A stretch of DNA of 64,000 nucleotides from Minisyncoccota bacterium (GCA_041666545.1 JBAYGS010000002.1:106395-170394); one strand, 5' to 3'; shown: positions 31,333 to 48,199, counted from the stretch's first letter. Notes: a model not told the origin generated them from the sequence alone. A program made the numbers and translations.

Positions 31333-32099
31333 AATTTTTCGGCTAGACGATTTTTAAACTTTTCGAAAATCAAAAGGCCCAACAGGAAGACGGCAATACT
31401 GCCAAGCGTGATGATTGTGACAGTCTCGACGCTTGGGATTTTTTGATAAATAACAATATCTCTTGCTGCGGTGATGAAGTAAGAAAGGGGGTTCCAAGTG
31501 TTGAGCCGGTGTAGGGGGCTGCTCGGATTAATTGAATAAAAAATCGGCGTGGCGAACCAAAGTAGGCGAGTAAAGACGACCCAAACATTTCGGAGGTCAC
31601 CGATGTAGACACCGCAGACCGAAAGTATGAGAGAAATACCGGCTGTGAAAAGGGTGAAAAAAAATAGAATTATTGGATAAAAAATTAGCCAGCTGATGTC
31701 AACTTGAAAAAAGAAAGCAAAAATTAGCAAAGCGACCAGCTCGAAGAGGTGAGAGAAAATGAATTGCCAAACCCCAGAGAGAACGAAGGGTTCCATCTTG
31801 ATCTTAAGCGACTTGATAAAACCGGAGTGGCTAGAAATTACTTGGGTTGAAAAGCCGGTGACGGCGCTCCAAAAATTGAACATGATTAGGCCGATGAAAA
31901 GATAAAGCGGGTATTTTTCGATTGAGTCTTGGGCTAAGGTGCTACTGATAAAAAATAGAATTAGAAAAAAGACGAGAGGCTCAAGGAGATACCAAAAAAT
32001 GCCAAGAAAACTGCCCTCATTTCGGACTTTGAAATTCGCCTTGGCCAAGGAGAGGCTAAGCCCAAGGACGCTTTTTATTTCTTGGAGTAGGGGATTCAT
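31329..32099 (-). CDS. ABC-2 type transporter permease (Wzm/TagG-like)
   Basis: Six TM helices. Overlaps the ATPase start by 4 nt, the typical Wzm-Wzt arrangement. Confidence 0.7.
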   Translation of the reverse strand: MNPLLQEIKSVLGLSLSLAKANFKVRNEGSFLGIFWYLLEPLVFFLILFFISSTLAQDSIEKYPLYLFIGLIMFNFWSAVTGFSTQVISSHSGFIKSLKIKMEPFVLSGVWQFIFSHLFELVALLIFAFFFQVDISWLIFYPIILFFFTLFTAGISLILSVCGVYIGDLRNVWVVFTRLLWFATPIFYSINPSSPLHRLNTWNPLSYFITAARDIVIYQKIPSVETVTIITLGSIAVFLLGLLIFEKFKNRLAEKL

Positions 32100-33304
32100 T
32101 TTCTGATTCCGAATTTTGGCGGAAGGGGCGAGATTCGAACTCGCGTGGGGCTTACGCCCCCAACCGATTTCGAGTCGGTGCCGTTATAACCACTTCGGTA
32201 CCCTTCCATAAATTTACGATACCTATTCCAGATTTTAGGATTTGAAGACCCGATTTTATCCAGGTATCTTTTTATTTCCTTTTCCCGTCTCCAAAAAATT
32301 GCGAATCGGGTCTTCTGGGTTGGGTGAAAACCTAGATGCTCAAGTGACTCCTTGAAAAAGCCTAAGATCGGTAAAGATCTATTTGTAAAATTCATCCCAC
32401 TGTGAAAATATAGTTTATTTTTAATAAAATGTCTATCAACGTAAAAACAACCGTCTGTGTCGAACAGTCCTCTTAGGCAAGCCTTTCTGTAGTTGTCAGA
32501 TTTAGAAATCCAAGATGGCACCTTGACCTGTTCCCTGACCTTACTTCCGGGCGACAAGCCCATTTTACATAAGTAATTTACTGCCAATGTTCTCGATACG
32601 ATAACGTCTATGACGTTTGTGTTTTTCCGATATACCAATGAAGGTTTTATGTCGAAGACCTTTTTGATAAGATCCGCGACATATTTAGAGTATTGTTCAT
32701 CATCAATTTTGTGCAGAGTAATTACGATCTGTCTTCTTGTCATTCCGCCGTCACCTAAGATTATACCAATAAGTTCGGCCAGCCTGACCGAGTGGTCAGG
32801 CTCTTTGATAGCGAGAGGTGAGAAAAAAGTTACACCTTGGGCTCTCATGGTTTCAGATGATCTAATCCCGCCAAGTCTTCGACCATCCGCTGTTCCCGGG
32901 TTGCCGTACAAAGCCTGTCTCGTCAGCCCGCCAATTTTTCCGTTCGTTGACTTAATTTTTGATTCGTCAATTTTTCTTGCTGGCCTCGGTAAACTGAATG
33001 GCAATTTAGTCGAAACTGACTTGATAAAATTTTCAGGTAGAGCAGTTCTGCTATTTCGCCAGTCTTGAAGGCTACGTGTTGAGATACCGTAATCCTTTGC
33101 CAGCTTTGACCATGAACCGTAGGTGTGCTTTAGGGGCGTAAATATTTGATCCAGGTCTTCTTGAGTGAAAAAATATCTAAGCATAAAACAATTGTAGCAT
33201 ACATCTATCAACGTCTCAGGCAAGATGCTGATTGTATAAATTTTTGCGATTTTCGCAAAAAATGCTATGCTCTCTGTGTTGTAGTTAGCTCTGTCTTTTC
33301 TCAA
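32096..33304 (-). CDS. LAGLIDADG-family homing endonuclease (two-motif, single-chain)
   Basis: Two LAGLIDADG-like motifs (LIGIILGDGGM and LRGLFDTDGCF) about 100 aa apart. The true start is possibly at MLRYFF (about 33184). The 3' end of the ORF runs through tRNA-Ser (32117-32207). Confidence 0.6.
   Translation of the reverse strand: MRKDRANYNTESIAFFAKIAKIYTISILPETLIDVCYNCFMLRYFFTQEDLDQIFTPLKHTYGSWSKLAKDYGISTRSLQDWRNSRTALPENFIKSVSTKLPFSLPRPARKIDESKIKSTNGKIGGLTRQALYGNPGTADGRRLGGIRSSETMRAQGVTFFSPLAIKEPDHSVRLAELIGIILGDGGMTRRQIVITLHKIDDEQYSKYVADLIKKVFDIKPSLVYRKNTNVIDVIVSRTLAVNYLCKMGLSPGSKVREQVKVPSWISKSDNYRKACLRGLFDTDGCFYVDRHFIKNKLYFHSGMNFTNRSLPILGFFKESLEHLGFHPTQKTRFAIFWRREKEIKRYLDKIGSSNPKIWNRYRKFMEGYRSGYNGTDSKSVGGVSPTRVRISPLPPKFGIRK
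32117..32207 (-). tRNA. tRNA-Ser (anticodon CGA), long variable arm, CCA encoded
   Basis: The reverse complement gives GGAAGGGTACCGAAGTGGTTATAACGGC-ACCGA-CTCGAAA-TCGGT-TGGGGGCGTAAGCCCCAC-GCGAGTTCGAATCTCGC-CCCTTCCGCCA. Confidence 0.85.
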
Positions 33305-33345
33305 TCCTTAACTACAAACTACCCACTACACACTACCAACTAAAT
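33305..33345 (+). repeat. GTAGT-family repeat (ACTAC orientation on + strand)
   Basis: TAACTACAAACTACCCACTACACACTACCAACTA lies between the homing-endonuclease start and the tRNA-Glu locus. Confidence 0.55.
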
Positions 33346-33349
33346 GCTG

Positions 33350-33394
33350 GCCCTATCGTCTAATGGTTAGGACACGGCCTTTTCAAGGCTGTAG
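33350..33394 (+). pseudogene. partial tRNA-Glu copy (5' 45 nt: acceptor, D-arm, anticodon arm)
   Basis: Matches positions 1-45 of the intact tRNA-Glu at 33538 with 1 mismatch. Followed by unrelated GC-rich sequence instead of a T-arm. Confidence 0.5.
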
Positions 33395-33537
33395 AGGGGT
33401 GAGCTTGGGGTGGGACCCAAGCGCAAGGCCGGAGCGAGCGAAGGCGAGTGAGGCGGGGTCGCAGAATTTTTCAGCAGAAAAATATCTGTGACCGACTCAA
33501 AGGAGTCGAACCCGGTTTAGTTTGATAATAAAATATT

Positions 33538-46917: not shown

Positions 46918-46940
46918 ATTTGGACCTGTTGACTTAACAT

Positions 46941-47405
46941 TTGACTTTAACTGGCGGGATCTTTAGATCGGAGTACAATCTAAATATGCAAGAGATTCAT
47001 AGTGCCGGCGGGGTAGTAATCGGCCCAAAAGGCGAAGTGCTTTTGGTTTGTCAGGACGGGGCTTGCTGGTCGTTACCCAAAGGCCCGCTTGAGAAATCTG
47101 AAAGCGCCATGGATGCGGCGCAAAGAAAGATTTATGAAGAATCCGGAATTGAGCCGGAGGATTTGAATTATATTAAACCGCTTGGGACCTATCAGCGCTA
47201 CCGCACTGGCTCCGACGGGAAAGAGGATGTGAACACCCACAAGACTATCGATATGTTTCTTTTTCGGACTCAAGTCGATGATTTGGATCCCCGGGAGCCT
47301 GATATTAGCGAGGCCCGCTGGTTCCCGAAATATGAAGTGATAAAGTATCTGACTCATCCGAAAGACAAGGAGTTTTTCACCAGCGTGCTTTTTGATTTGC
47401 CGTGA
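46941..47405 (+). CDS. NUDIX hydrolase
   Basis: Nudix box GPLEKSESAMDAAQRKIYEESGI (GX5EX7REUXEEXGU). Confidence 0.7.
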   Translation: MTLTGGIFRSEYNLNMQEIHSAGGVVIGPKGEVLLVCQDGACWSLPKGPLEKSESAMDAAQRKIYEESGIEPEDLNYIKPLGTYQRYRTGSDGKEDVNTHKTIDMFLFRTQVDDLDPREPDISEARWFPKYEVIKYLTHPKDKEFFTSVLFDLP

Positions 47406-47432
47406 CGAAACCACTGATGATATAATGGTCTA

Positions 47433-48137
47433 ATGATATCACAGTGGTACGGATTAAAGCCTCGAGCCATTAAACTTAGACAGGATGGCCTCTCTATTAA
47501 AATAATAGAAAAGAGGCTTAAAATTCCTCGGTCGACCTTGAGTGGGTGGTTTCGGCTAATCAGGCTGTCTTCGCAGCAGGAGCACAAACTGGAGGTAAAT
47601 AGAAGACTAGGCTTGGTTAAGGCTCGCGAAAAGGCGGTAATCTGGCACAATAAGCAGAAAGAAAATCGACTAAGGCTTGCCGAGGCCGAGGCGGACAAAA
47701 CTTTGGAACAGATCAATTTACCACATGGATCAGTTTCCGAATTAGCTTTGGCAATGCTATATCTAGGCGAAGGATTCAAAAAGAGCTTGGATACGGGTAT
47801 TGGCAATTCAGACCCGACCATTCTAAGGTTTTTTGTAGCTATGTTGTTAAATTTTTATAGAGTTGAAAAAAATAAAATTACATGCCAGCTACATTTAAGG
47901 GCTGATCAAGATCCTAATATGATTAAAAAGTATTGGTCAGAGAAGCTAGGTCTCCCTCTGGCCGCGTTTCAGGCGGTTTCTCAGGATAAAAGAACAAAAG
48001 GAAGACCAACATATCCTGACTATAAGGGAGTTTGTATTGTAAGATGTGGGCATGTTGCGATACAAAGAAAATTAGTGTATCTTAGTAAAAAGTTTTGTGA
48101 AAGAATAATCGGTCAAAACCAAGGATTGCGCGCTTAG
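47433..48137 (+). CDS. LAGLIDADG-like homing endonuclease (single-motif) with N-terminal HTH
   Basis: ELALAMLYLGEGF resembles the LAGLIDADG motif (I-CreI-like LAGFxDGEG). N-terminal resolvase-type HTH (RLKIPRSTLSGWF). The ORF 3' end overlaps tRNA-Val by 10 nt. Confidence 0.45.
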   Translation: MISQWYGLKPRAIKLRQDGLSIKIIEKRLKIPRSTLSGWFRLIRLSSQQEHKLEVNRRLGLVKAREKAVIWHNKQKENRLRLAEAEADKTLEQINLPHGSVSELALAMLYLGEGFKKSLDTGIGNSDPTILRFFVAMLLNFYRVEKNKITCQLHLRADQDPNMIKKYWSEKLGLPLAAFQAVSQDKRTKGRPTYPDYKGVCIVRCGHVAIQRKLVYLSKKFCERIIGQNQGLRA

Positions 48138-48199
48138 CTCAGTGGTAGAGCATTGTCTTGACGTGACAAGGGTCGGGGGTTCAATCCCCTCAGCGCGCA
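48128..48199 (+). tRNA. tRNA-Val (anticodon GAC)
   Basis: GCGCGCTTAGCTCAGTGGTAGAGCA-TTGTC-TTGACGT-GACAA-GGGTC-GGGGG-TTCAATC-CCCTC-AGCGCGC-A gives a cloverleaf with one G-U pair in the T-stem. Confidence 0.8.

Follow-up and report, generated by a model that had tools for sequence, protein, structure and literature searches.

Why do two genes that look like homing endonucleases each run into a transfer RNA (tRNA) gene in a 64,000-nucleotide (nt) stretch of the genome of a Minisyncoccota bacterium (GCA_041666545.1 JBAYGS010000002.1:106395-170394; this whole stretch is called the window below)? Homing endonucleases are thought to survive hidden in self-splicing introns, in inteins or in phage genomes, and a preliminary description of the window had proposed that the juxtaposition reflects either co-transcription and processing with the tRNAs, or nucleases that target tRNA-proximal sites. 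Our analysis suggests that both open reading frames (ORFs) are probably free-standing homing endonuclease genes whose niche is the 5′ flank, or leader, of one particular tRNA gene, with cleavage and mobility as predicted properties. The features concerned are the following:

32096-33184, minus strand: ORF1, gene for a helix-turn-helix (HTH) plus two-domain LAGLIDADG endonuclease, 362 amino acids from the ATG at 33184
32744-32773, minus strand: LAGLIDADG motif 1, LIGIILGDGG, with its Asp codon at 32750-32752 (D185 in the 402-residue version, D145 in the 362-residue version), invariant in 72 homologues
32447-32476, minus strand: LAGLIDADG motif 2, LRGLFDTDGC, with its Asp codon at 32453-32455 (D284 in the 402-residue version, D244 in the 362-residue version), invariant in 72 homologues
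32117-32207, minus strand: tRNA-Ser(CGA), intact, called by both ARAGORN and Rfam
47433-48137, plus strand: ORF2, 234 amino acids, with a resolvase/transposase-type HTH (residues 6-42), a long helix (47-92) and a LAGLIDADG-like alpha/beta domain (99-233)
47748-47777, plus strand: LAGLIDADG-like motif LAMLYLGEGF, with the Glu113 codon at 47769-47771
48128-48200, plus strand: tRNA-Val(GAC), intact, called by ARAGORN; the end given by Rfam is 48199

The preliminary description had placed and named these ORFs, motifs and tRNAs correctly, as seen with ARAGORN, Rfam and an ORF scan, and both ORFs are free-standing, with no intron or intein found. Both tRNAs are contiguous and have normal scores, the flanking genes are uninterrupted and Rfam detected no group I or group II intron, so that both endonuclease genes lie between host genes. 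At gathering thresholds, Rfam found only tRNAs and the RNase P RNA in the window, and neither a group I intron nor any further structured RNA near the ORFs, and an endonuclease encoded in a tRNA group I intron was rejected as a candidate given the contiguous tRNAs and the lack of any Intron_gpI match in the window. The concern that sequencing errors hide real stop codons was not borne out either: a second contig, from an independent JGI sample, carries the same DNA (100% and 99.95% identity) with both ORFs intact, which makes an assembly error unlikely, and the arrangement recurs in about 170 independent loci. Considering this near-identity of the DNA, gene decay in a sister strain was rejected and the shorter JGI gene calls were ascribed to caller artefacts. 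These JGI copies of the locus carry a warning for annotation, as callers that mask tRNAs first drop or truncate such genes.

Is the order of endonuclease and tRNA more than a coincidence of this one genome? Loci were fetched by protein motifs alone, as the best 80 of at least 552 ORF1 relatives in GTDB genomes and the best 80 of at least 490 ORF2 relatives in JGI metagenomes; every ORF of at least 90 amino acids in all loci was scanned with profiles of both families. A tRNA-Ser gene was next, on the same strand and within 150 nt, in 79/79 assessable members of the ORF1 family (CGA in 47, GCT in 15, TGA in 9, GGA in 7 and ACT in 1), and a tRNA gene was next in 89/95 cases for ORF2-type genes: Val(GAC) in 73, Gly(GCC) in 9, Ala(GGC) in 3, Ile(TAT) in 2, Trp(CCA) in 1 and Ser(CGA) in 1. 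The relatives found at tRNAs amount to about 170 other sequences, mostly from ultra-small bacteria, and one locus (L160) holds a further two-motif LAGLIDADG gene ahead of tRNA-Leu(GAG). The exceptions among the ORF2-type genes are informative in themselves: four of them (L092/L093/L094 and L146) have an intact tRNA-Val(GAC) 44-63 nt upstream and a decayed or 5′-truncated tRNA-Val downstream, another (L018) is followed by a tRNA 3′ remnant after its stop codon, and the last (L107) is a fragment of a frameshifted gene beside tRNA-Trp. In L018, a group I intron (positions 640-833, minus strand; 83 bits in Rfam) was seen beside a minus-strand tRNA, divergent from the ORF2-like gene with the remnant tRNA.

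The association extends to the type of tRNA, since the nearest protein neighbour has the same anticodon in 69/77 cases for ORF1 (0.41 expected by chance) and in 72/73 cases for ORF2 (0.75 expected by chance): protein sub-lineages follow the anticodon, and those of the ORF2 family are each tied to one tRNA species. The endonuclease-then-tRNA order is thus no coincidence but a family-wide property, and the linkage favours the second of the two options of the preliminary description, that is nucleases tied to tRNA-proximal sites. In four related loci (L006, L007, L012 and L016), tRNA-Val(GAC) directly follows the endonuclease-linked tRNA-Ser(CGA), which means that some related genomes have, side by side, the two tRNAs that each bear an endonuclease gene in the window.

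These counts bear on whether the pattern might come from artefact or chance, through errors that removed stop codons, accidental adjacency to tRNAs in a compact genome, or tRNA introns that were missed. Ordinary genes do end within about 20 nt of tRNAs, some of them with tRNA positions 8-10 as their stop codon, and Patescibacteria do carry group I introns in tRNAs (PMC13011429), but we regard this explanation as hardly credible when the same sequence comes from an independent sample, when one and the same kind of tRNA was met in 79/79 and 73/95 independent loci, and when the tRNAs are contiguous and normally scored, with no group I intron detected. It is refuted for the association, while the overlap itself is ordinary compaction.

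How tight this compaction is can be seen from stop-to-stop ORFs in 169 loci plus the window. The open frame of ORF1 (32096-33304, minus strand) takes in the entire tRNA-Ser(CGA), and its last 37 codons (32096-32207, including the stop) consist of tRNA-Ser sequence and 3′ spacer; residues 326-362 of the protein are encoded by the tRNA and lie outside the conserved protein, with residues 336-362 predicted to be disordered. The length of 402 amino acids first assigned to ORF1 belongs to an over-extended version with a TTG start: homologues and the database call P0001 (362 amino acids) begin at the ATG at 33184, and a TGcTACAAT box ends 6 nt upstream of it. For ORF2, the overlap with the first 10 nt of tRNA-Val (47433-48137 against a tRNA start at 48128) was confirmed, the stop codon TAG being U8-A9-G10 of the tRNA. 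Among the 79 members of the ORF1 family, 48 stop within the tRNA, 26 stop ahead of it and 5, including the window, read through the whole tRNA, with all three frames in use; 64/73 members of the ORF2 family stop within the tRNA, 43 of those at the TAG of positions 8-10. The tRNA-Val(GAC) sequence has a stop in every frame within 36 nt, and tRNA-Ser(CGA) has none in the frame used by ORF1 of the window.

Positions -21 to +10 of a tRNA also hold the ends of genes for FtsH, ribosomal protein L19, a NUDIX protein and an ScpB-like protein in the same loci, and several of these genes stop at the same TAG. Since housekeeping genes end at tRNAs likewise, the overlap is explained by genome compaction: an ORF running into a tRNA is a by-product of tight packing, without function. 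The read-through of tRNA-Ser by ORF1, highlighted in the preliminary description, therefore stands as a fact and not as a feature of special meaning, given that 5/79 relatives do the same and that housekeeping genes overlap tRNAs too. The 10-nt overlap with a U8-A9-G10 TAG stop was seen for FtsH with tRNA-Ile (L133, L138 and L153), for the ScpB-like gene with tRNA-Thr (L107) and for the NUDIX gene with tRNA-Phe (L138); RNase P cleavage would strip the stop codon from such housekeeping mRNAs.

If a nuclease gene came to sit ahead of tRNA-Ser, what does the same place look like where the gene is missing? One more feature of the window is needed here:

33538-33610, plus strand: tRNA-Glu(TTC), intact, divergent from ORF1, called by ARAGORN and Rfam

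An empty site was sought via the ABC permease downstream of tRNA-Ser, and this alignment of flanks with relatives lacking the endonuclease, which the preliminary description had suggested, yielded an orthologous empty site for ORF1 in L165/L166, a relative with a permease 78% identical to that of the window. In order, it carries tRNA-Glu(TTC) on the minus strand, a 70-nt spacer, tRNA-Ser(CGA) on the plus strand, LysE and the permease, with no endonuclease gene. Its tRNA-Glu is 98.6% identical to that of the window, and the spacer motif AGCATAGCATTTTTTG[C/A]GAAAATCGCAAAAA is common to L165/L166 and the window and was found nowhere else in 208 loci. The homology of the window to the empty site ends at about 33240/33241; between that point and the permease gene, the window holds a -10 box, ORF1 and a tRNA-Ser(CGA) with just 67% identity to the tRNA-Ser of L165/L166. 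This tRNA-Ser of the window is 80-87% identical to the endonuclease-linked tRNA-Ser of L001-L007 and L045. Because the empty site has a very different tRNA-Ser and the window allele groups with the linked ones, ORF1 and its tRNA allele would seem to form a single unit. The comparison is also compatible with the co-transcription option of the preliminary description. Additional empty sites did not come from the other permease relatives (66-73% identical), these being without synteny or having too little upstream sequence.

The tRNA-Ser of the window has a D-arm of an unusual type, 'TACCGAAG', which is characteristic of tRNA-Ser genes linked to an endonuclease. Two non-canonical D-arm types, classed by simple patterns and with host kinship ignored, make up 55/80 linked vs 8/40 other tRNA-Ser genes (Fisher p = 6e-7), and endonuclease neighbours share the D-arm type in 49/77 cases vs 0.31 expected by chance, again irrespective of host kinship.

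Could we be looking instead at an old, vertically inherited gene-tRNA pair that is often lost, its linkage kept by the need of the tRNA for its upstream promoter and its nuclease activity irrelevant or gone? Loci L001-L007 have the same divergent tRNA-Glu neighbour as the window, sub-lineages track anticodons as long co-inheritance predicts, and no direct sign of transfer was seen. Simple loss, by contrast, cannot explain an empty site in which the tRNA-Ser allele is 67% and the tRNA-Glu 98.6% identical to the window. In addition, loci assigned by label to different phyla combine the gene with the same unusual tRNA-Ser D-arm type, what lies upstream differs widely from locus to locus, and tRNA-ORF-pseudo-tRNA duplications exist. 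We thus judge vertical inheritance of such a pair to be improbable.

Occupancy of the tRNA sites is patchy. No ORF2 relative was found at the tRNA-Val(GAC) genes of the ORF1-selected loci (0/9), nor any ORF1 relative at the tRNA-Ser(CGA) genes of the ORF2-selected loci (0/7), and about 20 other tRNA-Ser genes are empty. The upstream neighbours vary, with about 40% being another tRNA (divergent Glu(TTC) for the clade of window ORF1; Ile(TAT) or Leu(GAG) for ORF2) and the rest assorted protein genes, and several spacers of one tRNA cluster are filled in some genomes and unfilled in others. Decayed copies and frameshifted endonuclease genes exist among the loci. Genes of both types are accessory. 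By record titles, with the labels of the metagenome-assembled genomes as given, members of the ORF1 family are present in Omnitrophota, Elusimicrobia, Planctomycetes and archaeal bins too. Among IMG/VR viral contigs, the ORF2 family was absent and the ORF1 family gave distant partial LAGLIDADG matches alone; a phage origin was rejected, as neither family proper is present there. In filled loci, no direct repeats derived from the tRNA 5′ end bracket the endonuclease genes, of the kind that would be a transposon-like footprint.

Other elements were seen around tRNA-Ser genes (L164, 868-2523; L176, 2554-4197). The 3′ end of a tRNA-Ser(GCT) is faced by a convergent ORF for a large serine recombinase of 551 amino acids, and one variant of the locus of protein P0090 has a GIY-YIG nuclease gene and a resolvase gene inserted after the endonuclease gene, so that different elements may target the two ends of tRNA-Ser genes. 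In L170-L178, the last ~230 nt (for example 8860-9089 of L170) belong to a 274-amino-acid gene with faint LAGLIDADG_3 matches that follows the genes for IF-2 and RbfA, with the ORF1-family gene a few kb away.

What kind of proteins do these genes encode? ORF1 is indeed an enzyme of the two-motif LAGLIDADG type that bears an HTH at its N-terminus, as first described: it matches Pfam LAGLIDADG_3 with 41.1 bits (cut-off 22.5), with both motifs present, and PHROG 4645 'endonuclease' with an E-value of 3e-12, and by sequence it resembles intein-type endonuclease domains. Its AlphaFold (AF2) model has a mean confidence (pLDDT, predicted local distance difference test) of 91 and two alpha-beta-beta-alpha-beta-beta-alpha domains, with the LAGLIDADG helices at residues 133-145 and 230-244; N-terminal to the nuclease lie an XRE-type HTH and a helical region. 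In Foldseek, the best match of the model was I-Tsp061I (E-value 2e-11, template modelling (TM) score 0.76), and I-DmoI, I-AniI and intein endonucleases were matched too. ORF1 is a member of the canonical two-domain LAGLIDADG family tied to tRNA-Ser, for which sequence and model predict DNA cleavage.

For ORF2, the motif LAMLYLGEGF and the N-terminal HTH of the preliminary description stand, but recovery by a LAGLIDADG profile does not: searches of Pfam, NCBIfam, PHROGs and PDB sequences gave HTH matches alone (weak in Pfam) and no LAGLIDADG match, and Foldseek of the ORF2 model against the PDB gave nothing significant. When the two families were compared with hhalign, the HTH alone aligned, with a probability of 10%, and homology beyond the HTH was rejected. 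In the ORF2 model, helix 99-113 ends in E113 and an extra helix lies between strands 3 and 4; Y110, G112, E113, G114 and K116 are invariant in 66 homologues. Since profile matches are lacking and both hhalign and Foldseek against the PDB were null, we call ORF2 LAGLIDADG-like with moderate confidence: judged from the model, it would be a single-domain protein that probably acts as a homodimer. A profile search of 1.84 billion cluster representatives retrieved 5025 clusters at E <= 1e-3 and 2441 at E <= 1e-10, nearly all of 225-240 amino acids. Identity within the ORF2 family is 55-63% across lineages, with 35 invariant positions. The family is thus very large, unannotated and nameless, with no Pfam, NCBIfam or PHROG model.

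The presence of an HTH in both proteins raises the question of whether they might be domesticated DNA-binding host factors. WhiA is a domesticated LAGLIDADG transcription factor with a C-terminal HTH that has lost the catalytic residues and is conserved across Gram-positive bacteria, and WhiA-like regulators of tRNA genes could bind the promoter or the 5′ region of their own tRNA and be kept adjacent to it for co-regulation. The N-terminal position of an HTH in both proteins, WhiA among the best structural matches of both models, the high conservation of the ORF2 family, the fixed position relative to the tRNA and the lack of identical copies in new contexts would all suit such factors. On the other hand, the acidic residues at the catalytic positions are invariant (D145/D244 in ORF1 and E113 in ORF2), occupancy is patchy with many empty tRNA sites, including one in a close relative, one tRNA cluster can hold several paralogous sub-lineages, each for another tRNA, and decayed copies and frameshifted genes exist. 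Neither protein was counted among WhiA-like domesticated regulators, their acidic residues being kept, their HTH N-terminal and their occupancy patchy, and we consider a regulatory host function unlikely, if a little less so than plain vertical inheritance.

How would a homing endonuclease gene persist in front of a tRNA? We infer DNA cleavage, its target, co-transcription, release by RNase P and homing as follows. The gene would lie between the promoter region of the tRNA and its mature 5′ end, and would be transcribed with the tRNA or just ahead of it. RNase P would then free the tRNA, making the insertion harmless in the way that splicing does for introns. The enzyme would cut endonuclease-free alleles of the same tRNA locus, and repair would copy the endonuclease gene together with the adjacent tRNA allele, a co-conversion as in the intronless homing of the phage T4 seg genes. 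The tRNA-ORF-pseudo-tRNA layouts would arise when a cassette of endonuclease and tRNA is integrated by recombination inside a tRNA, after which the redundant copy decays.

Sequences resembling promoters, all of them consensus matches only, lie ahead of both ORFs:

33191-33219, minus strand: promoter-like CTGAGA-17-TG-TACAAT, ending 6 nt before the ATG of ORF1, leaderless-type
33231-33258, minus strand: promoter-like TTGCGA-16-TACAAT, with its -35 in the spacer common with the empty site and its -10 in the window-specific block
47397-47426, plus strand: promoter-like TTGCCG-18-TG-TATAAT, ending 6 nt before the ATG of ORF2, leaderless-type

The common spacer carries a -35-like element in both cases (TTGCGA in the window, TTGAGA in L165/L166), which puts ORF1 between a promoter-like spacer and tRNA-Ser. 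A dedicated tRNA promoter inside the 3′ ends of the ORFs was not apparent, as -10-like boxes are not enriched there (16-20% of linked vs 26% of unlinked tRNAs); in some distant ORF1 relatives, a clear TGnTATAAT box lies 7-12 nt ahead of the tRNA. Downstream, the read-through ORF1 ends in ATGA (32096-32099), its stop codon overlapping the start codon of the ABC-2 permease gene, and ORF1, tRNA-Ser, the permease and an ATPase gene follow each other on one strand with no gap above 18 nt, so that tRNA-Ser may sit inside an operon-like transcript.

Several points weigh against homing endonucleases in tRNA leaders. Cleavage and homing are predicted events. The conservation of the ORF2 family is unusually high for a selfish gene and would fit a host function as well. 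Identical proteins in new genomic contexts were not found for the two that were followed, P0090 and P0183, which always have the same context and give no sign of very recent jumps; nor was any strain pair identical apart from the endonuclease gene found among the examined loci. Base composition gives no sign of a foreign origin, with GC contents of 40.8% for ORF1, 40.4% for ORF2 and 44.8% for the window, inside the gene-to-gene scatter. No sequence difference is visible between linked and unlinked tRNA-Val genes, and a site lying wholly inside the tRNA would require the bearing allele to be immune. The lack of -10 box enrichment before linked tRNAs is compatible with co-transcription but no proof of it, the statistics on anticodons and D-arms ignore host kinship, and the sample is the best 80 of at least 552 relatives for ORF1 and the best 80 of at least 490 for ORF2.

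Around the two loci, the window holds further traces at tRNA genes, among them:

33349-33393, plus strand: 5′ fragment (pseudo-copy) of tRNA-Glu, where relatives have the divergent tRNA-Glu beside the endonuclease gene

This 45-nt copy is 97.8% identical to the intact tRNA-Glu, 145 nt upstream of which it lies, and it matches the tRNA-Glu of the empty-site relative over the first ~47 nt, including position 14, at which the intact window copy differs. The same arrangement occurs in L116 (2028-2061), with a 34-nt tRNA-Glu copy and a gap of ~145 nt, the intervening sequences being without clear homology to the window. Directly after tRNA-Glu, at 33611-33700, inspection by eye showed nested inverted repeats (GGGTCACAACGCAAA / TTTGCGTTGTGACCC) around a CCGCC-GAGA-GGCGG-TTTT hairpin, followed by an inverted partial copy of the tRNA-Glu 3′ end broken by ~22 nt. 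Elsewhere, the 3′ end of tRNA-Arg(CCT) is repeated exactly over 20 nt at 13765-13784, 108 nt downstream of that tRNA, and 15-21-nt repeats of tRNA 3′ ends lie ~100-190 nt downstream of tRNAs in L010, L021, L065, L088, L114, L116, L141 and L152; such repeats resemble att-type scars left by integrated elements that were very small or have been deleted. About 1.2 kb from tRNA-Glu, a RadC-family gene (217 amino acids) and a gene for a 534-amino-acid protein with AAA_15 and OLD-like TOPRIM domains (34854-37124, plus strand; precomputed Pfam matches) look like a defence-type pair. The window also encodes RNase P RNA (5825-6281, plus strand; class A, 115 bits in Rfam), which spans 457 nt vs a 367-position model and thus has ~90 nt of insertions.

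What would be new here is a free-standing homing endonuclease with a rule-like tRNA niche together with a large unnamed family, free-standing homing endonucleases themselves being already known. A full-text literature search found no paper on endonuclease genes abutting tRNA 5′ ends, although the search was incomplete and a prior description is possible; endonucleases landing at the front ends of tRNAs would apparently be an undescribed class of selfish genes. More tentatively, as a wider proposal that may well prove too broad, the tRNA 5′ leader could be a fourth major niche of homing endonucleases, in addition to introns, inteins and the intergenic regions of phages. This niche would be held by a LAGLIDADG family on tRNA-Ser and by the unannotated LAGLIDADG-like superfamily (~5000 clusters at 50% identity), in lineages that each use one tRNA species and move as an endonuclease-plus-tRNA cassette, with RNase P in the part of splicing. 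Since most members have their stop codon inside the mature tRNA, cleavage by RNase P would leave an endonuclease mRNA without a stop codon and make endonuclease expression inverse to tRNA maturation. If true, a widespread cellular lineage would be hidden in tRNA leaders, rendered harmless via RNase P, a novel way for such genes to survive; a large group of Patescibacteria genes now called 'hypothetical' would be explained; a force that replaces tRNA alleles between lineages would be identified; and many new, diverse sequence-specific nucleases would become available whose targets, tRNA genes, can be guessed from context.

How do the two genes compare with known systems? In its fold, in both motifs and in both catalytic aspartates, ORF1 agrees with I-Tsp061I, I-DmoI, PI-PfuI and the TliVMA intein, but these enzymes reside in introns or inteins, whereas ORF1 is free-standing, has an additional XRE-type HTH and helical N-terminus, and abuts a tRNA. 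I-TevI is a modular homing endonuclease in which the DNA-binding and cleavage modules are separate; ORF2, with its succession of HTH, long linker helix and catalytic domain, would be alike in architecture alone, the catalytic fold and the domain order being different. WhiA shares the LAGLIDADG fold (putative in ORF2) plus HTH and is a structural match of both models, but its HTH is C-terminal and its catalytic residues are lost, in contrast to the N-terminal HTH, invariant acidic residues and patchy distribution seen here.

In the same hosts, tRNA genes are also home to other mobile elements: the tRNA group I introns of Patescibacteria interrupt the anticodon loop, mostly without an endonuclease and with few HNH enzymes (Nakagawa et al. 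2026; PMC13011429). Those are ribozymes that interrupt the tRNA, whereas here there is no ribozyme and the tRNA is uninterrupted. LAGLIDADG genes have been described in ribosomal RNA (rRNA) insertion sequences and introns of the candidate phyla radiation, with no mention of tRNA (Tsurumaki et al. 2024; PMC11270868). The host group and the enzyme superfamily are the same, conserved structural-RNA genes are used and removal occurs by processing, as it would here, but those genes lie inside the rRNA genes, whereas ORF1 and ORF2 are found in the 5′ flank of the mature RNA and not within it. In function, the nearest counterpart of the proposed model is SegB of phage T4, a free-standing GIY-YIG homing endonuclease encoded in the T4 tRNA cluster, whose site includes the tRNA T-psi-C motif, as proven experimentally (PMC2330249). 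Like the genes studied here, it is a free-standing nuclease gene among tRNA genes, and it spreads with the neighbouring tRNAs by co-conversion. It differs in its GIY-YIG fold and its phage genome, and in being a single known case that is not fixed at the 5′ end of one tRNA, as opposed to the thousands of lineages at tRNA 5′ ends for which we infer a comparable mobility.

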